A stretch of DNA of 64,000 nucleotides from Barthelona sp. PCE. Taxonomy: Eukaryota. Below, piece after piece: positions 1-59,955 of the stretch. Position 1 is the first letter of the stretch. Each line of letters opens with the position of its first letter. Position numbers and translations under genes: made by a program. The notes beneath the pieces were generated by a model. That model made no database searches. It saw only the letters and a program-made list of their open reading frames with translations, and was not told the origin of the DNA. Location: assembly GCA_040285745.1 (NCBI GenBank), contig JAUFOR010000006.1:1-64000 (forward strand). The letters run 5' to 3'.

Positions 1-758
1 TATATCTCCATGGAACTGCTTCCCAAAGCGATAGTACTTTGAAAAAGAGAAGAAAACTCTTCCCGGAACTTCCTACAATGTCACCAATTTCATTCGTGTT
101 ACCACCTACTACATAATACAGTACAGGAATATAAACCTGCTTCCCTTTCGATAGGAGTGCACAAAGCACTTTTGATACAGAGTTAACCTATCTCTTAGGA
201 CCGACTAACCTATGTCCAAATACAGTTGACATAGAACCCTTCTCCACTTCGGCCTTCCGAGGTTCGAAGATGAATACTTCCTTCCAAGATCTGCACTAGA
301 GACTGTTCCAGTCCGATTCACATCGTAACCTTCTTAACAAATCTCCACGCCCTCCTACACATTGGAACTTACATTGATTGTTCCAATGGTGGGTACTCAA
401 ATAATGCAACTGAGGCGCCATCCATTTTCAGGGCTAATTGATTCGGCTGGTGAGTTATAACACACTCCTTAGCGGATTCCAACTTCTATGGCCACCGTCC
501 AGCTGTCATAATCAAACAACACCTTTTATGGGATCTAATGAGCGTATATTTAGGCACCTCAACTCCACGTTCGGTTCATCCCGCATCGCCAGTTCTGCTT
601 ACCAAAAATGGCCCACTAAGAGTTCTGATTCTACATCCAAGTTCAAATTAAGTAACATGGACTGCTTGCCCGTTCAAAGTTTGAGAATAGGCTGAGGTCA
701 TTTCGTCCCCAGTACCTCTAATCAGTGGCTTTACCAGACAAAACTCATATGAACTCCT

Positions 759-798
<40 letters not shown>

Positions 799-1761
799 CG
801 ATTCGATTAGTCTTTCGCTTGTCCCCCAAGTTTTTGACGATCCGTTGTACGTCAGAACCGCTTCGGACCTCAGTTTCTGTAGGCTTCATCCTACTCAGGC
901 ATAGTTCACAGTCTTTCGGGTCCCAAACAACATGCTCCAACTCCATGGATTTGCCAAAGCGCCTCCCGGGTCGATTGTGCACCTTACAGGTTCCAACCTC
1001 AGTGGACTTGGTCCACTTTACTTTCATTTCGCGTATGGGTTTAACACCCAAAAACTGCATGTTATTGCCAGACTCCTTGGTCCGTGTTTCAAGACGGGTG
1101 AGTTAGCACCCATTACCATCATCTTGATTGAAGCAAATTACCATCTGCCTACTAATTAAACAGTAACTCAACACAAAGTGACGACTAAACTGAATAACTT
1201 CGCTAGCTTATTGCAACCTACAGACAATCTCGTTCCTCTGTCTCCGTTGAATATACTCGAGGTCTATAAAGATCCGAAGATCCACCTTTCCCCGTGAGCC
1301 AAACAACATGAAACAGATGATAGTGACTAGTATGGAAACCCATACAATCAGAGTACTAACACCTTCCCTTTCAACAATTTCAGGTACTTTTAACCCTCTC
1401 TTCAGAGTACTTTTCGTTCAGTAGTTTTTTATATCGGTCTTCCAGAAAACTGGAGGTGATGCTCACCACCCACTCAAGACTCCAATCCCAAAGAGCCCGA
1501 CTCTTAGAGCTAACGGGTATTTACTTATCAGCGACACAAACGGGACTATCACCCTCTATGGTATACCGTTCCAGGTAACTTAGTGTCGCATCCAAATAAT
1601 CCGAAAGTCTATATGCCACAACAGTTCCATACGGAACTTTTTTAGGCGTGAGCTTTTCCCTTTTCGCTCGCCGCTACTGGGGAATCGCAGTTGCTTTTTT
1701 TTCTTTTCCTGCGCTTAGTAATATGCTTAAATTCGCGCGTTCTCCTACTTGATTTGAGGTA
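1..1761 (-). rRNA. 28S (LSU) rRNA, 5' part (unit 1, truncated)
   Basis: Conserved LSU motifs seen on the + strand as reverse complements, e.g. TCCTGAGGGAAACTTCG, GGTCCGTGTTTCAAGACG; 5' end TACCTCAAATCAAGTAGG. Confidence 0.95.
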
Positions 1762-1888
1762 AAAATTAAACACTTAAAGTGGTCTTTGCACACATATGCT
1801 AAGATTCATTATGAAGGAGATATTTCATTAAAACATATTTCTATATTTAAAACAGTCCAACAACAATTTATTTGTTATAATAAATATT

Positions 1889-2033
1889 ACGCTCAAACAA
1901 GCATACCTCCGAAGAGGTGCAATTTGCGTTCAGAAATTTGATGATCAACAGGGTCTACCCAATTCATTACGTATCGCAGTTGTGCTGCGTCCTTTCATCG
2001 ATCTGGAAGCCAAGACATCCATTGTTGAAAGTT
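1889..2033 (-). rRNA. 5.8S rRNA (unit 1, error-rich copy)
   Basis: AACTTTCAACAATGGATGTCTTGG...GATCGATGAA...GAACGCAAATTGC...TTTGAGCGT on the minus strand. Confidence 0.9.
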
Positions 2034-2172
2034 ATCATGGTTAATTATCTTACATATGTAAGAGATATTTTAGGTTATATAGTATAAAAAGCAAACATCA
2101 AAGATGTTTTCTAATAATTACACAATTTGTTTGTATTTAAGAGTACAACGCAATGTTGTCTCTTGAATTTGC

Positions 2173-2313
2173 TATTGATCAACCGAAGGTTCACCTACGG
2201 TTACCTTTTTACGACTTTTCCTTCCTCTAGATGATAAGACACACTGAACTTTTCACCCGTACTAAGCATTGCTACTGTGCGTTGGCGCGATCCGAACATT
2301 TGGCATCATCCGG

Positions 2314-2357
<44 letters not shown>

Positions 2358-3929
2358 ATCAGCGTGCGCTAATGACACACACTTACTAGGAATTCCTTGT
2401 TCATGACCCATAATTGCAAAGGTCAATCCCAACATCACGATGTTACAAAAAAGATTAGCCAATTCCTTGCTTATTTCATGACATCCTTTAATTACAGGAC
2501 ATCTAAGAGCATCACAGACCTGTCTTTTACCCCAACCTCGGAGATAAAACTCTGGCAGTCCCTCTAAGAAGTTGGTCCATTTTGTAAAAAATGTCCAACT
2601 ATTTAGCAGGATGGGGTCTCGTTCGTTAACGGAATTAACCAGACAAATCACTCCACCAACTAAGAACGGCCATGCACTACCACTCATAGAATCAAGAAAC
2701 TGCTCCAAAGTGTCAATCATTACTATGTCCGGCCCTGTTGTTTGTAACGTTGAATCAGATTAAGCCACCAGGCTCCACTCCTAGTGGTGCCCTTCCACAT
2801 TCCTTTAAGTTTCAGCCTTATACCATCCCCCAGAACCCAAAACTTTGATTTTCTCGGGAGGTGCTGAAGGGTTTAATAAAACCTGTGCCTCAATCCCTAG
2901 TCGGCATAGTTTTATAGTTTATGGAACTACGACAGTGTCTAATCGTCTTCGATTCCCTAACTATCGTTCTTGATCACGAAAACATCCCACGAACGCCTTC
3001 GCTTCTGTTTGTCATTAGGAGATCAGAAAATTTCACCTCTCACTCCTAAGTACAGATGACCCCAAACTGTCCTATTAATCATTTACTCCTTCCTATGTAC
3101 CAACAAAAAGGTCAGAGTCTATTTCATTTATCCCATGCTATGTATTCAATTTGCGTATACCTGCTTTGAACCTCTATTTATTCAGGTAAAAAAACCATAT
3201 CTAACAGACGCCTAATGAATCTGATAGAAATGGTAGGAAGAACCAGTACAAAGAATGTAATCTAACGATAATCATCCATGCACCTGATTCACAAGTTCAA
3301 CTACGAGCTTTTTAACTGCAACAGTTTTAACATACGCTATTGGAGCTGGTATTACCGCGGCTGCTGGCACCAGACTTGCCCTCCAATTGCTTTCAAAAGG
3401 TCTATTTACACCTAAACCATTACATGCCGGGGACATAAGTGCTTACGCAATTTTGTTAATTTCTTTATCACCTTCTCCCTGAGGTCAGGGATTGGAAAAT
3501 TTTCGCGCCTGCTGCCCTTCCCGTGGGGTGGGGCCGTTTCTCAGGCTCCTCCGGAATCGAACCCTGATTCTCCCGTTACCCGTCAAGCACCTTACGTGAA
3601 GGCCTCTATCACCACGAATAAGTATGATAGCAGAGATTTAAATGATACGTCGCGTCAAGAGACAACGATCAAGCGAATATATTATGATTCACCTAAAGTC
3701 AGCTAATGATGGGTTGGTTTAATCTAATATATGCAATCCTTCGTGAGTTGGATTTTTTGTACATGTATACCTAGTTTACCACGGTTATCCCTAGTAGTAA
3801 GACTATCAAAAAGAAATTATCACTGATTTAATGGAGCCATTTCGCAGTTTCTCAGTATAAATGATCACCACTTAGACATGCAAAATAACTCGAGACAAGC
3901 ATATGATACTGGCAGGATCAGCCCAGGTA
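2173..3929 (-). rRNA. 18S (SSU) rRNA (unit 1, error-rich copy)
   Basis: Universal SSU motifs (GATCCTGCCAGT, GTGCCAGCAGCCGCGGTAA, TGTACACACCGCCCGTC) on the minus strand. Confidence 0.93.
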
Positions 3930-4878
3930 ACTTTTTTTAAAACATCGGCGAACCGGAGTTCTTAAAAAAGCAAGACTAAAGTCTTTTTTTTCTAATTGTA
4001 TAACCAGAAAAGTCTGTGTAAGACAATCTCTACTAAATCCTTTCAGATCTATCATAATTCTCTGCTTTATGCACGATTCATTTGTTACATATATTAAATA
4101 TGACATCAAATGATACTAACATAAAACATACAGCTGCTCTGACATGCGACTTCCCTTTACAGAGAAGATCACACCGATTACAGCACTCAAACATTCAACA
4201 ATGTTACCGTTAAAGGTACAAATACAGAACGTTTTTTTTCTTACTAATGTAAGAAATCCTTGTGTTCCGTTTAAAATCGGGTCTAAACCCATTTTTACTT
4301 GAACACAAGTTTATTTTATCATAAACATTATACTAACTTACAATGTAAGCTTTCAATGACTGAGTAGAGTGTGACCACTCTCCTCAACTATACTTTAAAT
4401 TACTTTTAGTACAGACATGAAAATCAAAAAATTTAACATTAGGGCCTCTAATAAAATGACTGAAAAAATATGCATATTTTTTTAGCTTGTCAACACATTG
4501 GATTTCTCACTCATTCTAAAAATTTCTAAAAAGTACTTGTTGTCACAACAAGGCGCGTTCACGCCTATGCTGTGACTTTATTCATCAGCTTAGACCCTCC
4601 AAGTGCACAAAAATGAAGTTAAAACGTATAAAAACGTAAAAAAAAACAACTCACAAAAACTACGGTTTTCAATATAGAACACTTAAAAAAAGTGTGATTG
4701 TTGACATTAATCAGACCTCAAACGATATTAAGTTCATTATAGGCAATATAATGATTGAAAAAAAAAGCAAAATTTTTCTACTTTTAAATAACCTTGCTCC
4801 TTTTATTCCTATAGACCTGAAAAACACGTTTTACAGACCGTTTCGTGCATTCTGATTGGTTCAAAATGCAAATAAAAA

Positions 4879-4992
4879 AGCACAGCACTTTGGGTTCCGT
4901 GGGCTCTCGCAACGCAGTTTTAACTAAGCCCTAACCTGCTTAACCTCAGTGTTCGGGATGAGGGCTGAGCATTTCCAGGTTGGTATATGAGC
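4879..4992 (-). rRNA. 5S rRNA (unit 1, error-rich copy)
   Basis: Homologous to the clean 5S copies in later units. Confidence 0.8.
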
Positions 4993-5934
4993 TGGAAATC
5001 TTAGAGTCGATTTTCAAACTCGGATCTACATACCAAAATGTTGTAAAAAAAAATCTCAAATTCGTGGCTTCACTAATAAATTCAATGGAGAAGGGCAGAA
5101 ATCGAGGTAAAGTAAAACCTCAATTATTTCCAAGAATTTGTATCACACCCTCAACATGTTTTTTATTAGCATATGTAAAAAAAAACTTGTTTTAGACCGT
5201 AGAACATCAGATAGCATCATTAAGACCATTAAAAAAGCTTAAAAAAAATGTTTGGCAAAAAAAGTCATTAGGAGGTTGTAAATTTACTTGGAGTTAGACA
5301 CTTGTGCAGGAGTTGCACGGGCTCCCCTCGAGTGCTGTGCTTGCACTGAGAATAGTGTTCTTGACCTTTTTTTTTTTAAATAAAGGGAGAAAATGATGTA
5401 AGTACTCACAGTAAGTACAAGAGGGAAGACCGCGTGTCTACTCCTCAGTGATTTTACTCCTAAAAAATTTATTCACAAGCGTTAAAAAAAAAAAAACACC
5501 TTTTATATTACAATGTAGTAAACCGTATTATGAATAATTTAGAGAGAGTGTGTAAGTGCAAAGCCAAAGAGATGTTATGTAGTAAGAATAATGCTTGTGA
5601 TATATGAGCGTACCGCTAAATACAATCATTCTTGATAGAAACCGTAGCTAATAAAATCATGTATTAGTATCAATAATACATACTAACTAACTAACAAAAG
5701 CAATAGCAAATATTCAAATTCAAGGCTAATGAAGAAAATTGTAGATACATCAGACGAAAAGTCTGCAGACTGCAGTTTGAAAAATTCAACTATAATTAGT
5801 AACAGTAAATATATAAAAGTCACAGATACTTTAGATTCTTTATGTATGTTGTTATGAATGTGAGAAACAAAGGTAAAAATACAAACACCTTTGATAGAAA
5901 CCGTATTAAGATTAAAGTGATATAATAAATAATT

Positions 5935-6343
5935 ATATCGAAACGTCTCAAAGAAGATGAGGCTCAGCGGATCGTGCCGAAGTGACACTCTCACATACTT
6001 ACACCACTCCTTGAGTAGGCCTACTCGTCTAGTAGGGTTTCAAACTAGTCATGCTCATTTATTATGCAAAGGTTACCGAACCAACATTTAGAAGATACGG
6101 TAAGTCTTATAATGTGCTCTCCGAATACATGAGTATTCTACACTGAGACTTCTAAGCAATATTGACTAGGAAGTAATCGTTTTTTAGATTAGATGCCAAC
6201 TTAGAGGCGTTCAGTTGTAATCTAACCTGCTTAGCTTCGCAGCAATGTCTGTTCAGACAACTGCAGATACCAAATGAAAGGTATAATAGTTCCTCTCGTA
6301 CTTTACTACACTACTATCACGATTAATAAATCAAAAGGATTAA

Positions 6344-6388
<45 letters not shown>

Positions 6389-6422
6389 TTAACGGGTGAA
6401 CAATCCGACACTTGGTGAATTC

Positions 6423-6466
<44 letters not shown>

Positions 6467-6920
6467 TACGTCGCTATGAACGCTTGGCAGCCACAAGCGC
6501 CAGTTATCCCTGTGGTAACTTTTCTGTCACACCTAAGCTTAAAGCATTTTAAAAACTAAAGTGATCAATAGGCCTTTGTTTCCAATGTATTTGACGTACT
6601 GAATCACATACTCAAGCGAGCTTTTACCCTTTTTTGTTCTAGAAAGTTTCTGTCCTCTAGGAGCTCACCTTAGGACAACTAAGCTACGGTCATCTTAGTT
6701 GTACCACCCCCCAAACTCCCAATCAGTTATATTTCTTAATTTGGGTTCAGCGCAAAGCTGTTAAATCTTAAAAATTTCCATATAGTTAGTAAAACGTCGA
6801 TGACAGTATCATGGTATCTTTCACCTTTGCCGGAGCTCCCATGTACCTACACTACTCGAGACATTTCACAAAAGCAGACTAGAGTCCAAAGCTCAACAGA
6901 GTCTTCTTGCCCCTTTGATA

Positions 6921-6954
<34 letters not shown>

Positions 6955-6984
6955 TGATCGTAGATAGGGACAGGACACAGGAAC

Positions 6985-7055
<71 letters not shown>

Positions 7056-9331
7056 CCCCGCCGTTTACGAGTGCTTCAGCATATCACTACACATTCACAA
7101 AAACATCGCACTGGGCAGAAATCACATTGCGTCAACGTCGTTTTACAACCATCGCAATGCTGTGTTTTTATTAAACAGTCGGGTTCCCCTTGTCCGTACC
7201 AGTTCCAAGTTAGCTGTTAATTGTGATGAAACGTTCCGTAGAACTACCAAAACCCTTTTAAATCGTAAATAAGACGTCCACTGAAAACCCGAAAGGTATC
7301 TATAGCTATCGAATTGTCAGATATGTCCAGATTAAGGCTTCGATCACTCAGCCCTTAGAGCCAATCCTTTTCCCGAAGTTACGGATCTAATTTGCCGACT
7401 TCCCTTACCTACATTCATCAATCAGACCAGAGGCTACTCACCTTGGGACCTGCATTTGGTTATGGGTACGGCTGTATTATAAAGATCATCCATTGGTTTT
7501 TCAAGGATCGTCGAAAGCGCACCGGACAGACGAATTGTCTGCTCGTGAGTACATTTATCCATATCTCCAGCTGAACTGCTTCCATGGAAATAGTACTTTG
7601 AAAAGAGAACAAAACTCTTCCCGGAACTTCCTACAATGTCATCAATTTCATTCGTGTTACCACCTACTACATAATACAGTACAGGAATATAAACCTGCTT
7701 CCCTTTCGATAGGAGTGCACAAAGCACTTTTGATACAGAGTTAACCTATCTCTTAGGACCGACTAACCTATGTCCAAATACAGTTGACATAGAACCCTTC
7801 TCCACTTCGGCCTTCGAGGTTCTCACTCGAATACTTACTACTTCCACCAAGATCTGAACTAGAGACTGTTCCAGTCCGATTCACATCGTAACCTTCTTAA
7901 CAAATCTCCACGCCCTCCTACACATTGGAACTTACATTGATTGTTCCAATGGTGGAGTATAGGTAATACGCTTGAGCGCCATCCATTTTCAGGGCTAATT
8001 GATTCGGCTGGTGAGTTATAACACACTCCTTAGCGGATTCCAACTTCTATGGCCACCGTCCAGCTGTCATAATCAAACAACACCTTTTATGGGATCTAAT
8101 GAGCGTATATTTAGGCACCTCAACTCCACGTTCGGTTCATCCCGCATCGCCAGTTCTGCTTACCAAAAATGGCCCACTAAGAGTTCTGATTCTACATCCA
8201 AGTTCAAATTAAGTAACATGGACTGCTTGCCCGTTCAAAGTTTGAGAATAGGCTGAGGTCATTTCGTCCCCAGTACCTCTAATCAGTGGCTTTACCAGAC
8301 AAAACTCATATGAACTCCTGCTATCTGAGGGAAACTTCGGAAGACCCAGCTACTAGACATTCTGATTAGTCTTTTCGCCCCTATACCCAAGTTTGACGAT
8401 CGATTTGTACGTCAGAACCGCTTCGGACCCTCCACTCTGAGTTTCCCAGGCTTCATCCCTACTCAGGGCATAGTTCAATCTTTCAGGTCCCAAAACAACA
8501 TGCTCCAACTCCATGGTTTGCCACCTCCCAGGTCGATTGTGCACCCACAAGTTTCAACCTCCAGTGGACTTGGTCCACCTTTACTTTCATTTCATGTATG
8601 GGTTTAACACCCAAACACTCGCATATTGTTACTTAGACTCTTGGTCCGTGTTTCAAGACGGGTGAGTTAGCACCCATTACCATCATCTTGAGGTTAAATT
8701 ACCATCTGCCTACTAATTAAACAGTAACTCAGCACAAAGTGACATTAAACTGAATAACTTAAACTGAATTAGTTGCAACCTACAGACAATCTCGTTCCTC
8801 TGTCTCCGTTGAATATACTCGAGGGTCTATAAAAGATCCGAAGATCCACCTTTCCCCCGTGGAGCCAAACAACATGAAACAGATGATAGTGACTAGTATG
8901 TGGAAACCCATACAATCAGTACTAACACCTTCCCTTTTCCACAATTTAGATTACTTTTAACCCTCTCTTCAGAGTACTTTTCATCGTTCGTTCACACTAC
9001 TTATTTGCTATCGGTCTTCCAGAAATATTTAGCTTTAGGTGATGCTTACCACCCACTTAAGACTCCAATCCCAAAGAGCCCGACTCTTAGAGCTAACGGG
9101 TATTTACTTATCAGCGACAAACGGGACTATCATAGTGACATACCGTTCCAGGTAATTAGTGTCGCATCCAAATAATCGAAAGTCTATATGCCACAACAGT
9201 TCCATACGGAACTTTTAGGCGTGAGCTTTTCCCTTTTCGCTCGCCGCTACTAGGGGAATCGCAGTTGCTTTCTTTTCCTGCGCTTAGTAATATGCTTAAA
9301 TTCAGCGCGTTCTCCTACTTGATTTGAGGTA
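5935..9331 (-). rRNA. 28S (LSU) rRNA (unit 2)
   Basis: Full LSU motif set including peptidyl-transferase-region and sarcin-ricin loop (AGTACGAGAGGAAC) sequences; 3' end approximate. Confidence 0.95.
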
Positions 9332-9463
9332 AAATATTAAAGACTTAACCCAAAGTGGTCTTTTGAACATATGCTAAGATTCACTATGAAGGGAGATATT
9401 TCATTAAAACATATTTCTATGTTAAAACAGTCCAACAACAGAATTGTTGTTATAATAAATATT

Positions 9464-9607
9464 ACGCTCAAACAAGCATACCTCCGAAGAGGTGCAATTT
9501 GCGTTCAGAAAATTTGATGATCAACAGGGTCTGCAATTCACATTACGTATCGCAGTTCGCTGCGTCCTTCATCGATCTGGAAACCAAGACATCCATTGTT
9601 GAAAGTT
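9464..9607 (-). rRNA. 5.8S rRNA (unit 2)
   Basis: Conserved 5.8S motifs GATCGATGAAGGACGCAGC, GTGAATTGCAG. Confidence 0.95.
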
Positions 9608-9746
9608 ATCATGGTTAATTATCTTACATATGTAAGAGATATTTTAGGTTATATAGTATAAAAAGCAAACATCAAAGATGTTTTCTAATAATTACACAAT
9701 TTGTTTGTATTTAAGAGTACAACGCAATGTTGTCTCTTGAATTTGC

Positions 9747-9889
9747 TATTGATCCAACCGAAGGTTCACCTACGGTTACCTTGTTACGACTTTTCCTTCC
9801 TCTAGATGATAAGACACACTGAACTTTTCACCCAACTAAGTATTGCTACTGTGCGTTGGCGCGATCCGAACATTTTGGCACATCATCCG

Positions 9890-9933
<44 letters not shown>

Positions 9934-10386
9934 ATCAGCGTGCGCTAATGACACACACTTACTAAGAATTCCCTTGTTCGACCCATTAATTGCAAAGGTC
10001 AATCCCAACATCATGATGTCTTTAAAAGATTAGCCAGGCCTCTCGACCAAGCTTTGACGACATCAGTGTAGCACGCGTGCGGCCCAGGACATCTAAGAGC
10101 ATCACAGACCTGTTATTGCCCCAACCTTCCTCCAGATAAAACTCTGGCAGTCCCTCTAAGAAGTTGGTCCATTTTGTAAAAAATGTCCAACTATTTAGCA
10201 GGATGGGGTCTCGTTCGTTAATTTGGAATTAACCAGACAAATCACTCCACCAACTAAGAATGGCCAGGGGCCTTTTCACCACTCATAGAATCAAGAAACT
10301 GCTCTCAAAGTGTCAATCATTACTATGTCCGGCCCTGGTAAGTTGTTCCGTGTTGAATCAGATTAAAGCCGCAGGCTCCACTCCTA

Positions 10387-10417
<31 letters not shown>

Positions 10418-11536
10418 TACCATATTCTCCCCAGAACCCAAAGGCTTTTTGATTTCTCGTAAGGTGCTGAAGGAATTTACAATAAACCTAGCCTCCAATC
10501 CCTAGTCAGTAGTTTTATGGTTTGGAACTTACGACGGTGTCTAATCGTCTTCGATTCCCCAACTATCGTTTGATCAATGAAAAACATCCTTGTCGGAACG
10601 CCTCGCTTCTGTTTATCATTAGGAGATCAGAAAATTTCACCTCTCACTCCTAAGTACAGACGACCCCCAAACTGTCCCTATTAATCATTTCTCTTCATTC
10701 CTATCTTCCCAAAAAAGGTCAGAGTCCTATTTCATTTATCCCATGCTAGTGTATTCAATTTGTGTATACCTGCTTTGAACACTCTAATTTATTCAAATTA
10801 AAAAACCATATCAACAGACGCCTAAGGAATCTGAGAAGAAATGGTAGGAAGAACCAGTACAATAAAAAGATGTAATCTAACGATAATCATCCATGCACTG
10901 ATTCACAAGTTCAACTACGAGCTTTTTTAACTGCAGCAGTTTTAACATACGCTATTGGAGTTGGTATTATTTTAGCTGCTGGCACCAGACTTGCCCTCCA
11001 ATTGCTTTCAAAAGGTCTATTTACACCTAAACCATTACATGCCGGGACACATAGCGCCTACGGTTTGTTATTTCTTGTCACCTTCTCCTGAGTCAGGATT
11101 GGAAAATTTTCGCGCCTGCTGCCTTCCGTGGAAGTGGGAGCCATTTCTCAGGCTCCCTCTCCGGAATCGAACCCTGATTCTCCGTTGCCCGTCAACACTT
11201 TTCGACAGGCCTCTATCCTGCGAATAAGTATGATAGGGCAGAGATTTAAATGATACGTCGCGTCAAACAACGATCAGCAATATATTATGATTCACTAAGT
11301 CAGCTAATGAAGCTGGGTTGGTTTAGATCTAATATATGCAATCCTTCGTGAGTTGGTTTTTTTGTACATGTATTAGCCCCTAGTTTACCACGGTTATCCT
11401 AGTAGTAAGACTATCAAAGAAATTATCACTGATTTAATGAGCCATTCGCAGTTTTCAGTATAAATGATCATACTTAGACATGCATGGCTAAATCCTTGAG
11501 ACAAAGCATATGATACTGGCAGGATCAACCCAGGTA
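9747..11536 (-). rRNA. 18S (SSU) rRNA (unit 2, error-rich copy)
   Basis: Universal SSU motifs on the minus strand. Confidence 0.94.
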
Positions 11537-12484
11537 ACTTTTTTTTTAAAACATCGGCGGAACCGAGTTCTTAAAACAAGACTAAAGTCTTTTTCCCCTA
11601 ATGTATAGACAGAAAGTCTGTAAAGACAATCTACTAAATCTTTCAGATCTATCATAATTCTCTGCTTTATGCACGATTCATTTGTTACATATATTAAATA
11701 TGACATCAAATGATACTAACATAAAACATACAGCTGCTCTGACATGCGACTTCCCTTTACAGAAGATCCACACCGATTACAGCACTCAAACATTCAACAA
11801 TGTTACCGTTAAAGGGTACAAATACAGAACGTTTTTTTTCTTACTAATGTAAAGAAATCTTTGTATTCCGTTTAAAATCAGGTCTAAACCCATTTTACTT
11901 GAACACAAGTTTATTTTATCATAAACATTATACTAACTTACAATAAAGCTTTCTGAATGACTGAGTAGAGTGTTACCACTCTCCTCAGCTATACTTTAAA
12001 ATTACTTTTTAGTACAGGACATGAAAATCAAAAAATTTAACATTAGGGCCTCTAATAAAATGACTGAAAAAATATGCATATTTTTTTTGGCTTACATCAA
12101 CACATTGGTTCTCACTCATTCTAAAAATTTCTAAAAAACTTACATTTGTCACAACAAGGCGCGTTCACGCCTATGCTGTGACTTTTATTCATCAACCAGA
12201 CCCTCAGGTGCACAAAATGAAGTTAAAAGGCATAAAAAACGTAAAAAAAACAACTCACAAAAAACTACGGTTTTCAATACGGAACACTTAAAAAGTGTTG
12301 ATTGACGACATTAATCGGACCTCAAACGATATTAAGTTCATTATAGGCAATATAATGATTGAAAAAAAAAAAGCAAAATTTTTCTACTTTTTCTAAATAA
12401 CCTTGCTCCTTATTCCTATAGACCTGAAAACACGTTTACAGACCGTTTTCGTGCATTCTGACAGTTCAAAAAAATGCAAATAAA

Positions 12485-12602
12485 AGCTTACAGCACTTGG
12501 GATTCCCGCGGGCTCTCGCAACGCAGTACTAACAAGCCCTAACCTGCTTAACCTCAGTGTTCAGGATGAGAACTGGCGTTTCCAGGTTGGTATGGCCGAA
12601 GC
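12485..12602 (-). rRNA. 5S rRNA (unit 2)
   Basis: GCTTCGGCCATACC...GTTAAGC...TAGTACT...GGGAATCCCAAGTGCTGTAAGCT followed by oligo-T. Confidence 0.9.
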
Positions 12603-13486
12603 TGGAAATCTTAGTCGATTTTCAAAACTCGGATCTACATACCAAAAATGTTGTAAAAAAAAATCTCAAATTCGTGGCTTTCACTAATAAATTCAATGGA
12701 AGGGGGAAATCCTGAGGACAAAAAAAAACCTCAATTATTTCCAAGAAATTTGTCACACCCTCAACATGTTTTTATTAGCATGTAAAAAAACTATTGTTTT
12801 TAGACCGTAGAACATCAGATAGCATCATTAAGACCATTAAAATAGCAAAAATGTTGCTTAAAAGTCGTAGGAGGTTGTAAATTTACTTCGGAGTTAGACA
12901 CTTGTACGGGAGTTTAAGACTGAGAATTCTAGACCCTTTTTTTTTTTAAATAAAGGGAGAAAAAAAATCACAGAGTACAGAGGGAAGAGGGAAACTCCTC
13001 AGTGATTTACTCCCAGAAAAGCGTGTTAAAAAAAAAAAAAAAAAAACACCTTTTATATTACCGTAGTAAACCGTATTATGAATAATTTAGAGAGTGTGTA
13101 AGTGCAAAGCCAAAGAGATGTTATGTAGTAAGAGTAATGCTTTGTGATATATGAGCGTACCGCTAAATACAATCATTCTTGATAGAAACCGTAGCTAATA
13201 AAATCATGTATTAGTATCAATAATACATACTAACTAACTAACAAAAGCAATAGCAAATATTCAAAGTCAAGGCTAATGAAGAAAATTGTAGATACATCAG
13301 ACGAAAAGTCTGCAGACTGCAGTTTGAAAAATTCAACTATAATTAGTAACAGTAAATACATAAAAGTCACAGATACTTTTAGATTCTTTTATGTATGTTG
13401 TTTATGAATGTGAGAAACAAAGGTAAAAAAATACAAACACCTTTGATAGAAACCGTATTAAGATTAAAGTGATATAATAAATAATT

Positions 13487-13903
13487 ATATCGAAACGTCT
13501 CAAAGAAGATGAGGCTCAGCGGATCGTGCCGAAGTGACACTCTCACATACTTACACCACTCCTTGAGTAGGCCTACTCGTCTAGTAGGGTTTCAAACTAG
13601 TCATGCTCATTTATTATGCAAAGGTTACCGAACCAACATTTAGAAGATACGGTAAGTCTTATATAATGTGCTCTCCGAATACATGAGTATTCTACACTGA
13701 GACTTCTACAAGCAATATTGACTAGGAAGTAATCGTTTTTTTTAGATTAGATGCCAACTTAGAGGCGTTCAGTTGTAATCTAACCTGCTTAGCTTCGCAG
13801 CAATGTCTGTTCAGACAACTGCAGATACCAAATGCAAGGTATAATAGTTCCTCTCGTACTTTTTACTACACTACTATCACGATTAATAAATCAAAAGGAT
13901 TAA

Positions 13904-20047: not shown

Positions 20048-20166
20048 AGCTTACAGCACTTGGGATTCCCGCGGGCTCTCGCAACGCAGTACTAACCAAG
20101 CCCTAACCTGCTTAACCTCAGTGTTCGGGATGAGAACTGGCGTTTCCAGGTTGGTATGGCCGAAGC
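20048..20166 (-). rRNA. 5S rRNA (unit 3)
   Basis: 119 nt; typical eukaryotic 5S sequence with pairing ends (GCTT...AAGC) and downstream T-run Pol III terminator. Confidence 0.95.
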
Positions 20167-20270: not shown

Positions 20271-20334
20271 TTATCCTCTATCCTACACCTTGGATGGTTT
20301 ACTGAAGTGACAGCCTGCATGTTGGGAGGGGCAG
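20271..20334 (-). repeat. Split direct repeat B2 (3' terminus of element)
   Basis: Identical, apart from one G in a G-run, to 20706-20768. Confidence 0.92.
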
Positions 20335-20572
20335 TTAGTGGCTAACTGTCTCGCTATTGAGAAAATATGACGAAATTTTTGTAAAATTTCTTGATAAAAC
20401 TTACCTGCGTTCTTTCTGCACTAGGATATAATTTATGCAGAAGATGATGAAAGACTTTCTTGGATAATCCAGCACAGAATGTGTGCGGAGTAGTTTTTCC
20501 AAGCTCACGGAAAACAACAAAAGTTTCGAAGATTATGTCGAAAATTAACTTTGGTTTTTTTTGTCTTTTTAA

Positions 20573-20705
20573 TTTTTGAATTCAGGAAAGAAATCGAAAA
20601 GCAGTTACTCGAGTCCGAGTAACTTAGCTAGGATTATTCTTTAACTTCACTGTGTATGTCATCTAGGTTTCGGGTGCATCAAGATTCCGATTGCCATCAA
20701 CTACA
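20573..20705 (-). repeat. Split direct repeat A2 (internal copy of 5' terminus)
   Basis: Near-identical to 26539-26676; directly abuts B1. Confidence 0.92.
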
Positions 20706-20768
20706 TTATCCTCTATCCTACACCTTGGATGGTTTACTGAAGTGACAGCCTGCATGTTGGGAGGGCAG
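20706..20768 (-). repeat. Split direct repeat B1 (internal copy of 3' terminus)
   Basis: Matches 20271-20334. Confidence 0.92.
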
Positions 20769-20805
20769 ACAGAACGAACCGTTAGACAGGACGGGTACGG
20801 ATCAA

Positions 20806-22962
20806 TCAAGATACCGCCCATTCTCGTATCTGGTTTATACTGTACAGTTCCCCCGGCATGGCGTACTCCAGGTCGTGAATATCCAGGTAATACTTATTCA
20901 TGGTTTCATTGGCGCTCCAGCCCCCAATCTGTCTGGCTGTGTCTTTGTCACCATGAATTTTGATAATATCTTGGCATCTCCCCGCTCTTATGGCGTGGGG
21001 GTTGAATCTCGCTCCAGGCGGTGCACCTATGAGGTTTGGATCGTCAAAGACGGTGTTAAACCTTTTTAGAATTTTTGCTTCCCGGTCTTTTGCTCCTGTA
21101 CCTAGGAGTAACGCGGTGCCCTGCCGCTTCGTTTCGAGTGCATGCACAATAAACGGCGCAAATACACTTTCGTACCAATATTTTTGGGGAATTGTTGCAA
21201 AACGTCCTTTTCGGCTTTTCCCTTGCGTTTTATGCTTTGGGATCATCACTGAGAGGGATTTCTCCATGCTATTTTCATGAAGAGTGATCTCAAGGTGTCG
21301 TTTTTCTATAAAATTCAATTCTCCCGATCTACAACCGAGAATGTAGTGGATCGACAGTATTTGGCAGTCCAGGATGCATTGTTCGACCTCCTGTGAGACC
21401 ATAGCACTTATTTGGTCTCGTGGAGAAAAAATGTCCTCTCGGAGCTTCATGATAGACTCATGGGCGCTCTCTTGGACGAGGAACAGCAGCCTCTGGACCA
21501 CAGACGCTCTTATAGCGCATTTATAACTGTATAATTTGGGGATTGCTCCACTTTCATCGGTTATGATCTTTGTACGCGCTGAAATGAGGTACTGCCTGTC
21601 TTTATCGCAGGCGTCCTCCCAGCAACCGGTTGTAAGCAGTCTAATAACTCTCAGGGAGCTTCTTAGAAGGGATCCGTATGTATCAAGAGTGCTACTCTTG
21701 TAATACAGGATTAGGGCTGTGTTGCCTTCGGGCGATTCGCCCTTTTCGGCTCTCTCCGCTAGGTCAGCTATGCATAAACCTACTAACAGATTGCAGTGGC
21801 TTGGATTTTTTATCCAGCCATACATCCTCCTTATTGCATTCTGATTAGCTTCAATGTACTGTCTAAATAGTTTGAGGGCGGTCCTGGCTGTGCTTAAGGA
21901 ACCTTTTCTGAAGAACAGCGCCAGGAGATCGTCAATTCTCATTGTATTGGCTGGAAACCTAAAGTGTTTCTTCACTATGAGGGGGACGTCTATCTTCACG
22001 AAGTCAGTGTCGCCCTTCCACAAGCTTCCTGCTTGTACAGCCTTTGATTTGACAGGGAAAATTTTTTCCGGGTTGATGGTAATTTCGCACATTTCTTTCC
22101 ATGGACGAACGAACTGCGATACCATACCCCACACGGGTGCAGATGGGAGAGGTTGTGGTAACTTCACTCTGATAGTAACACCGGTCCTGAGGGCCGCTAG
22201 TAAAATAATTTCTAACGCCGCTGCTGCTGACTGGGCAGGGACCATCTGTTCGACTGTGTGGCTCTCTCTTCCGATCATATCTATCTCAAACTTCGGTTTA
22301 GAGCGGGGGACTGTGTATCTTATATCTTCCAGTCCCTCAACCACTGGTGTTGTATCAATTTTGTCTTCTTTCAGTTTTAAGAAGGGTGCCGTTAACTTGG
22401 GCAGTCCCTGTCGTCTCGATACGGGCATAAAAGCTAAATCGCTTTTAAATGTTTTTCGAAACAAGTTCATTGCCCGGATGCAGCCAACTGAGCGGCCGCT
22501 CTTGTCCTGTTTTGCTCTCGCTATGAGGGGGCTGGTATGGCCCGGCTCATAAGCGCTTGGGACGACAGAATTTAGAATTATAATCTCCTTTGGGGGAACG
22601 AGCTCTTGAAGGAATGTTCCCCTCGATTGTTTCCAGCAGACTGGCTCTCCACGTGAGGCCATGTCCGGAAGGTGATTAAGTACAGAGGGAACGTAAATCG
22701 CTTCCACAACAAGGTCCTTCTCTTGGCAGAATCTTGCCAAGGTCCGGGCAGCATCGTTGAGGACGGTATTGCGCGACGTTAGTTTGTTCGTCGCAGCTAC
22801 CACATTAGTGTTATCGCAATACCAGACGAGATATCCATTGGATAGTTTGGACCCGAGGCTGTGCAGCATAGCCATCAGGGGTTCCATCTCCGCATGAGCG
22901 ATCGACAGTTTTGTTTTCTGGATCGCTTTCGCTTTATCTTTTGCTGACAGCATGTTCAGCAA
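20806..22962 (-). CDS. Retrotransposon RNase H + tyrosine recombinase (C-terminal part of pol; frame open upstream to ~23163)
   Basis: RNase H motifs LISDAA (in frame, upstream of the called start), SIAHAE, WYCDN, YVPSVLNHLPDMASR; YR catalytic motifs GCRSGEL, PKHKTQ, PHAIRAG, GGW, MNKYY. Confidence 0.92.
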   Translation of the reverse strand: MLNMLSAKDKAKAIQKTKLSIAHAEMEPLMAMLHSLGSKLSNGYLVWYCDNTNVVAATNKLTSRNTVLNDAARTLARFCQEKDLVVEAIYVPSVLNHLPDMASRGEPVCWKQSRGTFLQELVPPKEIIILNSVVPSAYEPGHTSPLIARAKQDKSGRSVGCIRAMNLFRKTFKSDLAFMPVSRRQGLPKLTAPFLKLKEDKIDTTPVVEGLEDIRYTVPRSKPKFEIDMIGRESHTVEQMVPAQSAAAALEIILLAALRTGVTIRVKLPQPLPSAPVWGMVSQFVRPWKEMCEITINPEKIFPVKSKAVQAGSLWKGDTDFVKIDVPLIVKKHFRFPANTMRIDDLLALFFRKGSLSTARTALKLFRQYIEANQNAIRRMYGWIKNPSHCNLLVGLCIADLAERAEKGESPEGNTALILYYKSSTLDTYGSLLRSSLRVIRLLTTGCWEDACDKDRQYLISARTKIITDESGAIPKLYSYKCAIRASVVQRLLFLVQESAHESIMKLREDIFSPRDQISAMVSQEVEQCILDCQILSIHYILGCRSGELNFIEKRHLEITLHENSMEKSLSVMIPKHKTQGKSRKGRFATIPQKYWYESVFAPFIVHALETKRQGTALLLGTGAKDREAKILKRFNTVFDDPNLIGAPPGARFNPHAIRAGRCQDIIKIHGDKDTARQIGGWSANETMNKYYLDIHDLEYAMPGELYSINQIREWAVS

Positions 22963-23098
22963 GTCGATGAGTTCATTCTTGGCAAGATCATTGCCGCCTA
23001 CACTGCGAAGTAGCAGGTGCTCAAAACAGGTTTCGTCAACATCATCCGTTGCGAAAGCTGTGCCTGCGATACCTATTTTCTCTTCACTTACAGCAGCG

Positions 23099-23632
23099 TC
23101 ACTTATTAGGACCCACTTTTTTTCTGGTGGAAAGAAGGGGTTGTGGTGGAAAATCGTGATCGGCTAAACTCGCAAGGGTACAAGCGAGGTGGTGTGCCTC
23201 GTTTGTACCGATGAATCCAAGTGGAGACCCGCTGGTAGGGTCTGTTGCCTTTGGCTGGGCCTCGATCTGGCCGTGTTCATGATGCTGGACCTCCTTCAGG
23301 TCTTGGTCGCCGATCGTGAGCGATCTCGTCATGAGCCACTTGGTTATTTTTCTAGGAATGCCATCTTTATCCTTTAGTGCTTCGTGTATGATGGCATTGA
23401 TCGTAATGGCGGAGGCATGTAGCTTTCTGCTAGCCGCCCTAAACGCCGTGCACTTCGATGCAAGTTCTACGAAGTCTTTCAACGGGATTTCCTTGCATGA
23501 TGTGAGCTTATGGGCCAGTTCTTGAGCCTTCAGCGCGATCTTACGGCAATTAGCATCACTTGGTGCTAATGCCACTTTCATATTTGGATCGTCCGGCGAT
23601 CCAAAGGTAGATGTGATGGTGAAACCTATCAC
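23099..23632 (-). CDS. Retrotransposon pol, RT thumb/connection segment (frameshifted piece)
   Basis: Frame continues the RT motif INKKK-SVEPCKKLDVIGFTI across an A8 run at 23660-23667. Confidence 0.75.
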   Translation of the reverse strand: MIGFTITSTFGSPDDPNMKVALAPSDANCRKIALKAQELAHKLTSCKEIPLKDFVELASKCTAFRAASRKLHASAITINAIIHEALKDKDGIPRKITKWLMTRSLTIGDQDLKEVQHHEHGQIEAQPKATDPTSGSPLGFIGTNEAHHLACTLASLADHDFPPQPLLSTRKKVGPNK

Positions 23633-23634
23633 AT

Positions 23635-25068
23635 CTAATTTCTTACATGGTTCGACAGATTTTTTTTCTTGTTGATAGTGATATCCAACCAGAAACAGAT
23701 TAGCTTGAGCAGACGCATGGCGTCGCTAGCACTACGGTATCTGCCTCTTCGATCTGGGGATTGCCATCCGAAAACATCGTCTATGTAGGCCCATAGTTGG
23801 TAACCTAGAGCACGCATAGGTGCTAGGGCTAGGTTCATCAACGCTGAGAATATAGCGGGGCCAAACGTGACTCCGAAGCACAACTTTGTGCACCGGTAAA
23901 AGCCGCCGTTGAGGGAAAATGTAAAGAACTTTTGAAAGTCTTCCGCAATGGGGATGAGATGGAAGCCGTTGGATGCATCGATGGAGAACAAATCATCGTT
24001 CGGGTTTACCAGGTTAAATAACCGCACCTTGGGCAGTTCCATTGGGAACATGTTAAACATGTCGTTAATCGGGGTGCAATCAGTGATAATTCTTATATCA
24101 CTTATTGAGACATCTTCGAAGCACTCCTCAATGTCTTCTCGACCGGCCCAGTCTTGGCTGAGGGCATCAATGGCCGATTGTTCGATGCCTTTGGGCACCA
24201 CACCGATTTTAATAAAAGCTGTTTTTACGCCAACAGGGAGTTTCGACATTTCCGACACTGGGTCATGATCCAGCTTAACAAAGGCGTCGCTTTTTTCTAT
24301 CTTTTCCTGTACTAGGAGGGAGATGCGTGATCCATCCTCAAACCAGTTTTCTTGTGGACCGTTAAACGGTTCTTTACGGATTTGAGAAACGTTTTGATTG
24401 CTCATGACGTGATGGGCGCTTACTCCGTGCGTCAACATTGATTGAAGGTTGGTGGAATGGCCAACACTCAAGCCTGCGATTTTTGCCAAAATATCGATGC
24501 GTTGACGGGTTCGACGAGGCGCATATGGGCTCGTCTGTATCGTATGCTCCATGAATTCCTCTGCCTTGTCTAGATCTATTTCTAGCTCCCGTATTTTTAG
24601 GCCGGGGATAGCGTCCATGAGAGACGCTGGCGGAGCTGGCTCAGCCCAACCAGATAGGTTGGGGGCCTGTATACCTACCGTCTCACTCGCTCTACGCTGG
24701 GGTTCCTCAATGCTGGCTGAGATTGGCCTGGCATTTTTCTGTACCGCAACGTTAAAGGCGGTTTTGAACCCCTCAGCACTCAGAGTAGGTTCTACTGGAC
24801 CTACAACTGGGGAGACGCGAGGTTTTGATGGTGGTGGTGGAGGTGGCAACCCCTGAACAGGTTCTGGTGCGATAGTGTGGGATTTTAGGGCTGTGACGCG
24901 CGCTATGTCCATGTATAGGTCCCTATCGCGGATGGCAGCCGCTAAATCTGCCTTAAGTTTGGGGATAATGGCGCTTTTTTGTGCTTCAGCTTTACGCTTT
25001 CTGCGCTTTTGATCCTCCAAAAGATCTCGGATTTCGAGAAGGGTATCGTCGTGTGGGTCCAACGGCAC
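23635..25068 (-). CDS. Retrotransposon reverse transcriptase (DIRS-type) with N-terminal coiled-coil/Pro-rich region
   Basis: RT motifs RIITDC, FSIDASNGFHLIPI, YRCTKLCFGVTFGPAIF, YIDD. Confidence 0.93.
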   Translation of the reverse strand: MPLDPHDDTLLEIRDLLEDQKRRKRKAEAQKSAIIPKLKADLAAAIRDRDLYMDIARVTALKSHTIAPEPVQGLPPPPPPSKPRVSPVVGPVEPTLSAEGFKTAFNVAVQKNARPISASIEEPQRRASETVGIQAPNLSGWAEPAPPASLMDAIPGLKIRELEIDLDKAEEFMEHTIQTSPYAPRRTRQRIDILAKIAGLSVGHSTNLQSMLTHGVSAHHVMSNQNVSQIRKEPFNGPQENWFEDGSRISLLVQEKIEKSDAFVKLDHDPVSEMSKLPVGVKTAFIKIGVVPKGIEQSAIDALSQDWAGREDIEECFEDVSISDIRIITDCTPINDMFNMFPMELPKVRLFNLVNPNDDLFSIDASNGFHLIPIAEDFQKFFTFSLNGGFYRCTKLCFGVTFGPAIFSALMNLALAPMRALGYQLWAYIDDVFGWQSPDRRGRYRSASDAMRLLKLICFWLDITINKKKNLSNHVRN

Positions 25069-25146
25069 CTCACAGTGCTGTGGCGACTCGACGCGGGTGG
25101 AAAGCCTCTCAACTGGGTTAGATTTACAAGCGAGAGACTCGTCATC

Positions 25147-26490
25147 TCACTTTCTCCTGCTTCGCCGCGGTCTCCTAGGTTGCTTATACTTGGAGACGCC
25201 CTTGGGGGACAACGCGTCAATGAACAGCGTCGGGCGGCCGGGGAGGTGTCTTACGAGGAAATTTATCTCATTCACACAACTTGCAATAGCTGAGGCGTCG
25301 GTTTCCGAGATTCTTTCCAAGGCCTTCATGTAATCAGAGTTTCTATGGCCGATCCAGAGGCTGATGGCGGTGAGCATGACGGGGCGAGTTTCCTCCGAGA
25401 CTTCGTCGCTGCCTATGACTGCCATCAAGTCTAGGATACAGTGGAGGAATGCCACTGGGACTGCAGTTTTTTGACGACTAGCGTGGTATTGTCTTCTCTT
25501 CCAAGAATTTTCAGGGTTGCCGAGGCAAGTGAAGCTCTCGTTTATAATTCTATACCACCGGGAGCTATCGTTGGAGACATTGTTTTCTTCTAAAACGGGC
25601 AGGATTCCTGGGAAGAGGCCTCCGTTGTTGTAGTTGAGGGTTCTGGTGGCGCCGAACGTGGTTTTGAGGATTTCAATCAGGTTATCCCAGCCTGGCTCGG
25701 GGCCAAGCTTGGGCTCTTCCGTCATCCGAGCCATGAAGCCTTTTATCCTTCCCATGGCCTCAGGGTCAAATGGGCGGGCGAACGCATTCATGGATGGGTC
25801 TGTACCCCCTTGTGGAACCACAAAGTTGGGGGCCATTTGCTCCATCAGCGCCTCCTCGACATACCGGGATATGTCGCCCGAATTCCCCCTGAATGTATCG
25901 ATAATCTCGTCCCGCATTGCCACGATGTTACTCATGGGCAGGGGCTTGAGGACCGCCTCAAACGCGGCCTCATCGAAGTCGCTGGTCGCCTGGAGCTTCG
26001 CACGGGCACCCTGTGCAAATTTCCTGACACGGTCATGCAGAGGATACACAAGCTTAAAAAGCATGTCCCAGGCATTTTGTGCGACTCCTGAACTCGACCT
26101 CCTAAGGTCGGATGTTGCCTTTCTTATTTCGGCCGCGGTGGCCTCCGCGGTGGGCATGCCCATGAAGAGAAGAAGTAACGCGTACTTCTCCCTTTCACCG
26201 TCCTCGCTGCTGCCTCTGTCCCACACCGCAGTGGGGATGGGCTCGTTATGGTTTAGCAGCGGGATCTCATCTACAATGTGCACCAATGATGCCAAGAGGA
26301 CGGGTAGTACACTCTTGCACAGGTGGGACACTTTCTTGAGCTTCCAGAGCTCTGGACTATCCTTGAGGCTATACATGGCCTCAAAGACCATCTCTGCCAT
26401 GTCCACGACCCTCCTCACGGGCTCCTTGTAGTTTGTTTTTAAATTTCTAAAACTTAAACATTCTATTCCCTCATTTACATAACTCGACAT
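25147..26490 (-). CDS. ORF1, putative gag-like protein of the YR retrotransposon (447 aa)
   Basis: First ORF after terminal repeat A1; helical-looking sequence with Arg-rich tail PRRPRRSRRK; assignment is positional, no recognised motif. Confidence 0.7.
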   Translation of the reverse strand: MSSYVNEGIECLSFRNLKTNYKEPVRRVVDMAEMVFEAMYSLKDSPELWKLKKVSHLCKSVLPVLLASLVHIVDEIPLLNHNEPIPTAVWDRGSSEDGEREKYALLLLFMGMPTAEATAAEIRKATSDLRRSSSGVAQNAWDMLFKLVYPLHDRVRKFAQGARAKLQATSDFDEAAFEAVLKPLPMSNIVAMRDEIIDTFRGNSGDISRYVEEALMEQMAPNFVVPQGGTDPSMNAFARPFDPEAMGRIKGFMARMTEEPKLGPEPGWDNLIEILKTTFGATRTLNYNNGGLFPGILPVLEENNVSNDSSRWYRIINESFTCLGNPENSWKRRQYHASRQKTAVPVAFLHCILDLMAVIGSDEVSEETRPVMLTAISLWIGHRNSDYMKALERISETDASAIASCVNEINFLVRHLPGRPTLFIDALSPKGVSKYKQPRRPRRSRRK

Positions 26491-26538
26491 TGAACAAAGG
26501 ATTTAAATCTCAATATATATCAATCTTTGACGGGTTTT

Positions 26539-26676
26539 TTTTTGAATTCAGGAAAGAAATCGAAAAGCAGTTACTCGAGTCCGAGTAACTTAGCTAGGAT
26601 TATTCTTTAACTCTCACTATCAGTGTATGTCATCTAGGTTTCGGGTGCATCAAGATTCCGATTGCCATCAACTACA
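26539..26676 (-). repeat. Split direct repeat A1 (5' terminus of element)
   Basis: Near-identical to 20573-20705; contains hairpin AGTTACTCG-AGTC-CGAGTAACT. Confidence 0.92.
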
Positions 26677-33953: not shown

Positions 33954-34218
33954 TGGAAATCTTAGTCGATTTTCAAAACTCGGATCTACATACCAAAATG
34001 TTGTAAAAAAAAATCTCAAATTCGTGGCTTCACTAATAAATTCAATGGAGAAGGGCGAAATCCGAGGAGCAAGTAAAAAACCTCAATTATTTCCAAGAAA
34101 TTTGTCACACCCTCAACATGTTTTTATTAGCATGTAAAAAAACTATTGTTTTTTTAGACCGTAGAACATCAGATAGCATCATTAAGACCATTAAAATAGC
34201 AAAAATGTTGCTTAAAAG

Positions 34219-34450
34219 TCGTAGGAGGTTGTAAATTTACTTCGGAGTTAGACACTTGTACGGGAGTTATGAGCTCCCCTCGAGTGCTGTGCTTGCACTG
34301 AGAATTGTTCTAGAGCCCTTTTTTTTTTTTTTTAAATAAAAGGGGAGAAAGAAATGATGTAAGTACTCACAGAGTACAAGAGGGAAGACCGCGTGTCTAC
34401 TCCTCAGTAGATTTACTCCTACGAAATAGCGTGTTATTCACAAGCGTGCC
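34219..34450. repeat. Fold-back (imperfect inverted repeat) segment in rDNA spacer
   Basis: Same segment as 41841-42067. Confidence 0.6.
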
Positions 34451-41577: not shown

Positions 41578-41840
41578 TGGAAATCTTAGTCGATTTTCAA
41601 AACTCGGATCTACATACCAAAATGTTGTAAAAAAAAATCTCAAATTCGTGGCTTCACTAATAAATTCAATGGAGAAGGGCGAAATCCGAGGAGCAAGTAA
41701 AAAACCTCAATTATTTCCAAGAAATTTGTCACACCCTCAACATGTTTTTATTAGCATGTAAAAAAACTATTGTTTTTAGACCGTAGAACATCAGATAGCA
41801 TCATTAAGACCATTAAAATAGCAAAAATGTTGCTTAAAAG

Positions 41841-49064: not shown

Positions 49065-49183
49065 AGCTTACAGCACTTGGGATTCCCGCGGGCTCTCGCA
49101 ACGCAGTACTAACCAAGCCCTAACCTGCTTAACCTCAGTGTTCGGGATGAGAACTGGCGTTTCCAGGTTGGTATGGCCGAAGC
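49065..49183 (-). rRNA. 5S rRNA (unit 6, first gene of the array in transcription order)
   Basis: Identical to other 5S copies. Confidence 0.95.
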
Positions 49184-59943: not shown

Positions 59944-59955
59944 TGTAAAATGCGT

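Follow-up and report, generated by a model that had tools for sequence, protein, structure and literature searches.

An array of ribosomal DNA (rDNA) in the metamonad Barthelona sp. PCE is interrupted at one point by an insertion of 6406 bp. This locus raises the questions of what kind of mobile element is present and whether its position upstream of a 5S rRNA gene reflects a preference for such sites. The element was analysed within a stretch of 64,000 nucleotides, referred to here as the window (GenBank assembly GCA_040285745.1, contig JAUFOR010000006.1, positions 1 to 64,000). We consider it probable that the element is an autonomous DIRS-order retrotransposon of Ngaro-like architecture, genuinely and recently inserted, and that it belongs to a very divergent family seen only in Barthelona sp. 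PCE. This free-living organism has a very gene-dense genome of 10.2 Mb in 8 contigs, with 5064 proteins and 4.46% repeats, and its assembly was made from Nanopore reads with Illumina correction, according to excerpts of the genome report (PMC11316075).

The rDNA array runs on the minus strand of the window. Matches to Rfam models establish the order within each unit as small subunit (SSU), 5.8S, large subunit (LSU), spacer, 5S and spacer, with every 5S gene oriented like the large rRNA genes. Five complete SSU-5.8S-LSU sets are present, along with a sixth set whose LSU is truncated by the start of the window, and 5S genes number six. The element occupies positions 20271..26676, and its sense strand is the minus strand, which makes it co-oriented with the rRNA and 5S genes. 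It lies in an LSU-5S spacer, upstream of the 5S gene at 20048..20166 (minus strand; Rfam RF00001, 103 bits), with a gap of 104 bp separating the element's 3' end from the 5' end of that gene. G+C content is 42-54% in the element region, compared with ~32-35% in the spacers. Inside the element, an Rfam search at E values up to 1 returned nothing but the neighbouring 5S gene.

The ends of the element were established by spacer homology and by comparison of the junctions with unoccupied sites. When the spacers of units 4 and 5 are aligned by blastn with the occupied unit, homology breaks exactly at 20270/20271 and 26676/26677. The empty target site reads GAGAAGGGCG/AAATCCGAGG, where the slash marks the insertion point (unstranded; 34048..34067 in unit 4, with the same 20-mer at 41672-41691 in unit 5). 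The corresponding occupied junctions read ...GGGCG/TTATCC... and ...CTACA/AAATCC.... These junctions fit the empty site exactly, and therefore the insertion comprises exactly 6406 bp, with no target base duplicated or lost. In all four other LSU-5S spacers of the window the site is uninterrupted, as judged by continuous alignment, such that one site in five is occupied. In an exact search of the window, units 4 and 5 alone contain the empty-site 20-mer, which is explained by the many errors in the first two units. Next to the 5S gene at 49065-49183, the sixth, homology to the spacer is reduced to 31 bp and the site is missing. These findings agree with the original prediction of a 6406-bp element in the rDNA spacer, co-oriented with a 5S gene and 104 bp upstream of it, for which the empty site is visible in units 4 and 5. 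That prediction had also placed the element in one of six rDNA units; the window has six 5S genes, a sixth LSU cut by the window start and five spacers that have the site.

The two ends carry repeats whose internal copies lie near the element's 3' end. In sense orientation, the layout is A1, the open reading frames (ORFs), B1, A2, ~238 nt of unique sequence and B2, all on the minus strand, which constitutes an arrangement of split direct repeats. The 5' terminal repeat A1 (26539..26676, ~138 nt), with the outer end TGTAGTTGATGG... in sense orientation, aligns by blastn with 20573-20705 at 96.4% identity. This latter segment is its internal copy A2 (20573..20705, ~133 nt), and the two are identical save for one 5-nt indel region. 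The 3' terminal repeat B2 (20271..20334, ~64 nt) closes the element with ...GAGGATAA in sense orientation. It matches the internal copy B1 (20706..20768, ~63 nt) over 60 nt at 100% identity (20271-20330) or over 64 nt at 98.4%. At the internal boundary of B1 and A2 (20705/20706), the sequence ...GAGGATAA/TGTAGTTG... joins the element's 3' end to its 5' end exactly. Such an internal copy of the joined termini is the hallmark of retrotransposons that encode a tyrosine recombinase and carry split direct repeats, according to excerpts of three papers (PMC4157794, PMC3783388, PMC6681497). The unique spacer between A2 and B2 (20335..20572) matches nothing else in the window. No inverted terminal repeats of the DIRS-1 type were found, and the sole inverted pair within the element is weak (22 nt, 82%). 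A metagenome scan with the 27-nt B end gave 0 matches.

Between A1 and B1, the element encodes a gag-like protein, an in-frame TGA, a reverse transcriptase (RT), an RNase H, a domain of 235 amino acids and a tyrosine recombinase (YR), in this order and all on the minus strand. The gag-like ORF (25150..26490, 447 amino acids) has a basic C-terminal tail (KYKQPRRPRRSRRK) and no Pfam match. It is followed by a TGA stop (25147..25149), after which pol goes on in the same frame, and therefore pol expression would need read-through or another means of bypassing the TGA. The first part of pol (23638..25146, 503 codons from stop to stop) consists of a linker and the RT, which contains the YIDD motif and passes the cut-off for Pfam RVT_1 (E 3.6e-10). 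A second part in another frame (23102..23725, 208 codons) encodes the C-terminal portion of the RT and a connection region. This part is contiguous with the first and third parts of pol in two annotated proteins of the same organism, which are P0001 from the family of the window copy (family 1) and P0035 from a second family (family 2). The pol frame ends with a TGA at 20806-20808, and ~37 nt of untranslated sequence separate this stop from B1. The gag and pol frames both terminate in TGA (25147-25149 and 20806-20808).

The RNase H-like domain (22648..23115) was recognized by phmmer and carries the motifs SDAAV, AEMEP, CDNTN and LPDMASRG, in which the usual D, E, D, D pattern can be seen by eye. 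Its phmmer matches are to short RT-linked RNase H fragments, with E values of 2.6e-5 to 9e-4. Pfam returned nothing relevant for the domain itself, and RT_RNaseH or RVT_3 were detected on 15 of the 21 non-Barthelona phmmer matches, mostly below threshold. The 235-amino-acid domain that follows (21943..22647) is ~33% identical to its family 2 counterpart. It has no Pfam match at E values up to 10, its best score in a language-model Atlas (0.75) provides no lead, and its AlphaFold2 model is too poor for a fold search (predicted local distance difference test, pLDDT, of 31).

The YR region (20809..21942, 378 amino acids) contains the motifs GCRSGEL (R), PKHKTQGK (K), HAIRAGR (HxxR), GGWSANE (W) and NKYY (Y). 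Families 1 and 2, at 24% overall identity, both have R205, K238, H316, R319, W342 and Y352 without change. The region aligns with positions 23-166 of the 172 in the Pfam Phage_integrase profile at 16.8 bits (E 0.006), compared with a cut-off of 27.1. An hhalign comparison was made with 34 mostly anuran proteins, of which the named ones are labelled 'integrase/recombinase xerD homolog' or 'uncharacterized protein' and many carry PF00589. In this comparison, the K, HxxR, W and Y blocks fall in register (E 0.097, probability 0.6), and GCRSGEL corresponds by eye to the GAxRIGEL block of these proteins. In the Atlas, the protein adjoins Phage_integrase and ALOG/Phage_integrase clusters with scores of 0.97-0.98, and 10 of its 30 feature matches belong to a cluster set with Phage_integrase on 32% of members in the row shown. 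The YR motifs are convincing despite the weak statistics.

Relatives of these proteins were sought in large collections. The nearest proteins are annotated as hypothetical and come from Barthelona sp. PCE. When the region from RNase H to YR (RH-X-YR) was compared with 1.84 billion representative proteins, there were 29 matches, eight of which are from Barthelona and 21 of which cover the RNase H region only. Word-based homologue searches with RH-X-YR and with RT-RH gave three proteins each, all from Barthelona. Family 1 comprises 12 locus tags on four contigs (six on the 2.17-Mb contig, three on the 2.13-Mb, two on the 1.33-Mb and one on the 0.69-Mb contig). The closest two of these tags are 60 apart, and several lie deep among ordinary gene tags. 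P0001, on the 2.17-Mb contig, is not derivable from the window copy, and therefore represents a separate copy. The models P0001, P0004 and P0007, all from this same contig, show no amino-acid substitution relative to the window copy in the properly aligned parts, and P0006 plus seven more diverged or fragmentary models constitute further family 1 loci. These findings show that family 1 has been recently active and is dispersed. Within the window, searches with family 1 DNA and family 2 protein revealed no element copy outside 20271-26676.

Family 2 was recognized through P0010, which is 30% identical across the whole RH-X-YR query and thus marks a second family in Barthelona sp. PCE. It consists of five near-identical gene models (P0010 and P0035-P0038) of 1849-2533 amino acids on three contigs, one of which (P0038) has been fused by annotation to a downstream ABC-transporter-like gene. 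With regard to the window copy, the original prediction of a full-length tyrosine-recombinase retrotransposon with gag-like, RT (YIDD), RNase H and YR regions is confirmed by the domains (Pfam RVT_1, phmmer and the conserved YR residues), the complete repeats and the exact ends. Its suggestion of recent activity is likewise substantiated by a second copy (P0001, P0004 and P0007) without substitutions in the aligned parts.

The assembled pol is not one open frame. To continue from the first part of pol into the second, the frame must shift by -1 at a run of eight A residues (A8; 23660..23667, minus strand; ITINKKK/SVEPCKK). The frame of the first part is regained at a run of seven (A7; 23117..23123, minus strand; STRKK/WVLISD). 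With good confidence, we attribute both frame changes to uncorrected Nanopore homopolymer noise, because P0001 is in frame through both A-runs, P0035 of family 2 is continuous at both places, and homopolymer lengths vary within the assembly. Specifically, 17 of 44 homopolymers of at least 5 nt differ in length among the four better rDNA units, some of them inside rRNA genes. P0001 itself has a different shift, located after KIDVP. The true pol is probably one frame of ~1446 codons.

The opposing explanation is that the frame changes are real and represent programmed ribosomal or transcriptional slippage at A8 and A7, by which the amounts of RT, RNase H and YR would be set. Both shifts indeed fall exactly on slippery A-runs, which are the only A or T runs of at least 7 nt in the coding region, and they compensate each other (-1, then +1). 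In addition, sequence near the second site is likewise left out of the gene models of a ~91%-identical subfamily. However, the near-identical copy P0001 and the more distant P0035 read through both sites as described above, homopolymer lengths are unreliable in this assembly, and it is hard to see what regulation would gain from two shifts that cancel each other. On balance, slippage appears unlikely. A different type of assembly error, in which a transposon copy from elsewhere was misjoined into the rDNA array, would undermine the insertion itself. The region is a repeat at a probable contig end, and the first two rDNA units are indel-rich (92.6% and 95.6% identity). Nevertheless, both junctions fall at the same spacer base and the element is complete. 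Moreover, its two ends match the internal B1/A2 junction base for base, which a chimeric join would not yield. We therefore regard a misjoin as very improbable.

The frame changes and the stop codon have also shaped the annotation. The window copy yields every letter of the GenBank model P0005 (1836 amino acids, 688,707-bp contig) if three GT-AG gaps of 45, 89 and 40 nt are introduced, and these gaps skip the TGA and both frame changes. P0005 is thus very probably the annotators' model of the window copy itself. Over its whole length it shows no Pfam match to Dam, integrase (rve) or protease domains at E values up to 1. The 45-, 89- and 40-nt intervals were considered as real introns and rejected, since P0001 has another first donor and lacks the other two. 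Most likely, these introns arose artificially when genes were predicted across a transposon.

Several observations weigh against the view that the window copy is an autonomous DIRS-order element. The model P0005 gets past the stop and the two shifts only by means of three invented introns, and if the shifts are real, the window copy would be unable to make RNase H or YR by simple translation. The YR statistics are weak (Pfam below its cut-off at E 0.006; hhalign E 0.097, probability 0.6), the YR alignment, used as a profile against PDB, gave only a chance match (E 0.37), and the AlphaFold2 model of the YR has a pLDDT of 44, which is too poor for a fold search. The ~238-nt unique spacer between A2 and B2 departs from the textbook A1-B1-A2-B2 scheme. 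The junctions and the homopolymer lengths are taken from the assembled sequence alone. Finally, a target preference of family 1 is possible, with flanks seen for the window copy only.

Ngaro elements, first described in zebrafish, sea urchin and fungi, are the known group that the Barthelona element most resembles in layout, although this label is assigned by architecture alone. Characteristics of the DIRS order found here are an RT, an RNase H after the RT, YR residues without an rve match, the absence of a target-site duplication and the internal joined termini. The repeats are split direct repeats whose inner copies lie downstream of the YR, as in Ngaro-like elements (A1-ORFs-B1-A2-B2). Also held in common are the order gag, RT/RH and YR and the absence of a target-site duplication, following criteria in excerpts of PMC4157794 and PMC3783388. 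A methyltransferase domain, which Ngaro-like elements lack, is not detected here by Pfam, but the 235-amino-acid domain sits where PAT elements carry theirs. In contrast to Ngaro-like elements, the Barthelona element has no significant match to any non-Barthelona YR or gag, carries a conserved 235-amino-acid domain between RNase H and YR as well as the ~238 nt of unique sequence between A2 and B2, and has gag and pol in one frame split by a TGA. Its host is a metamonad.

Other groups share fewer of these features. PAT-like elements (Pat1, Toc3 and Kangaroo) likewise have split direct repeats, and in them too a domain separates RNase H from YR. However, the position of the PAT methyltransferase is held here by the 235-amino-acid domain, which has no Pfam Dam match at E values up to 10, and the Barthelona gag lacks a zinc finger, as judged by eye from the translation. 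VIPER and TATE of kinetoplastids are also protist YR retroelements with split direct repeats, and TATE is a DIRS-order element site-specific for telomere repeats, according to excerpts of PMC6681497. No sequence relationship to these elements is detectable, and the target in Barthelona is an rDNA spacer seen once rather than a repeated specific site. DIRS-1 of Dictyostelium has in common with the Barthelona element RT/RH and YR domains and joined termini that are copied internally, and the replication model described in part of PMC7192593 proceeds via a restored circle junction. DIRS-1 differs by its inverted terminal repeats, internal complementary region and methyltransferase, whereas the Barthelona repeats are direct, with one 22-nt inverted pair at 82% and no Dam match. 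The trinucleotide shared between junction and target that flanks DIRS elements in the same excerpts (PMC7192593) is not seen here. No paper combining DIRS, tyrosine recombinase and Metamonada was found in the full-text literature, and YR retrotransposons therefore appear to be unreported in metamonads.

The organization of the element suggests how it might replicate and integrate. Transcription would start within A1. Gag would be translated from this transcript, and a gag-pol product comprising the RT, RNase H, 235-amino-acid domain and YR would be made on bypass of the in-frame TGA. During reverse transcription, the internal B1/A2 junction might serve as the template that joins B2, at the 3' end, to A1, at the 5' end, which would yield a closed circular DNA. 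The YR would then recombine the circle junction ...GAGGATAA/TGTAGTTG... conservatively with a chromosomal site, which in this instance would have been ...TCGGATTT/CGCCCTTC... in the LSU-5S spacer. A reaction of this kind would result in no target duplication.

Established specialists of rDNA or of genes transcribed by RNA polymerase III (Pol III) include R1/R2, Pokey, Ty1/Ty3 and Dictyostelium TRE5. Like them, the Barthelona element is located in rDNA or close to a gene of the Pol III type, but these specialists have many copies at the same site or distance, whereas only one of at least 12 family 1 loci is seen at such a position here. Strict rDNA specificity of family 1 is unlikely, because one of five spacer sites is occupied and the 12 locus tags are spread over four contigs. 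The R1/R2 pattern, with copies confined to rDNA and the same site used in many units, is not what is observed; flanking sequences are seen for the window copy only. A preference for Pol III genes is possible.

Family 1 might nonetheless be a specialist for the rDNA spacer or for the region upstream of Pol III genes (5S and tRNA), which would serve as a safe haven reached through sequence recognition by the recombinase or through tethering to Pol III factors. This explanation would account for one precise, co-oriented insertion 104 bp upstream of a 5S gene, and a GGAT that lies two bases away from the crossover is found in the B end as well as in the target. A compact host genome (10.2 Mb, 5064 proteins; excerpts of PMC11316075) favours safe-haven strategies, and precedents are provided in excerpts of other papers by TATE, a site-specific YR element in Leishmania telomere repeats (PMC6681497), and by Starships, which insert in 5S rDNA (PMC11162782). 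Starships differ, however, in being DNA elements whose insertions lie within the 5S coding sequence, according to the same excerpts of PMC11162782. Speaking against specialization are the single occupied spacer site among five and the 11 further family 1 models at separate locus tags on four contigs, several of them between ordinary gene tags. A tRNA-Thr gene at 51893-51964 has no element sequence nearby, and at the crossover itself no core of three or more identical bases is common to target and junction, the GGAT being two bases away. A single insertion also carries no statistical weight. We therefore consider specialization improbable. The location in the rDNA spacer is most simply explained as one tolerated landing place in a gene-dense genome of 10.2 Mb, and does not count as evidence of specialization. 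Among the papers listed for tyrosine-recombinase retrotransposons or Ngaro together with rDNA, the text available describes no rDNA-specialized family of the DIRS order. It is likewise improbable that the Barthelona family is the first tyrosine-recombinase retrotransposon to target the rDNA spacer or the region in front of Pol III genes.

Additional features of the array and its surroundings were noted. Compared with unit 5, rDNA units 1 and 2 (window 1-13489) are 92.6% and 95.6% identical, their alignments open 128 and 114 gaps, and the substitution spectrum is flat. Such a pattern resembles errors left in unpolished long reads, probably close to the end of a contig, more than it does rDNA that has diverged. 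Differences between units are indels almost throughout. A spacer segment of ~232 bp that is present in units 4 and 5 (34219-34450 in unit 4) is missing from the occupied unit at 26835/26836, and the spacer of unit 2 lacks ~98 bp in the area of this gap. Therefore, spacer length varies between units. The array ends near 49.2 kb, just past the 5S gene at 49065-49183. Homology to the array stops 31 bp upstream of this last 5S gene, and a spacer-like fragment of 107 bp (80% identical) is present ~0.9 kb further out (50113-50219). Ordinary genes lie beyond the array, two of which encode an Avl9-like protein and a protein with ankyrin repeats, and a single tRNA-Thr gene is also present there. At 59134-60405 (plus strand), an ankyrin-repeat ORF of 269 amino acids is followed 6 bp later by a 151-amino-acid ORF on the same strand, and the two may belong to a single gene that is divided by an intron or a homopolymer error. 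The telomere repeat reported for Barthelona sp. PCE is absent from the 64,000-nt window.

These findings have implications for the genome of Barthelona sp. PCE and for the DIRS order. Three GenBank gene models have been shaped by the element, as seen in the invented introns of P0005, the splicing of P0001 over the gag stop and the fusion of P0038 to its neighbour. Active retrotransposons persist in a free-living organism with a genome of only 10.2 Mb. If a target preference of family 1 were true, it would represent a new route to a safe haven. With both Barthelona families, the DIRS order becomes wider in range and more diverse than was known, because outside Barthelona only the RNase H region was matched.

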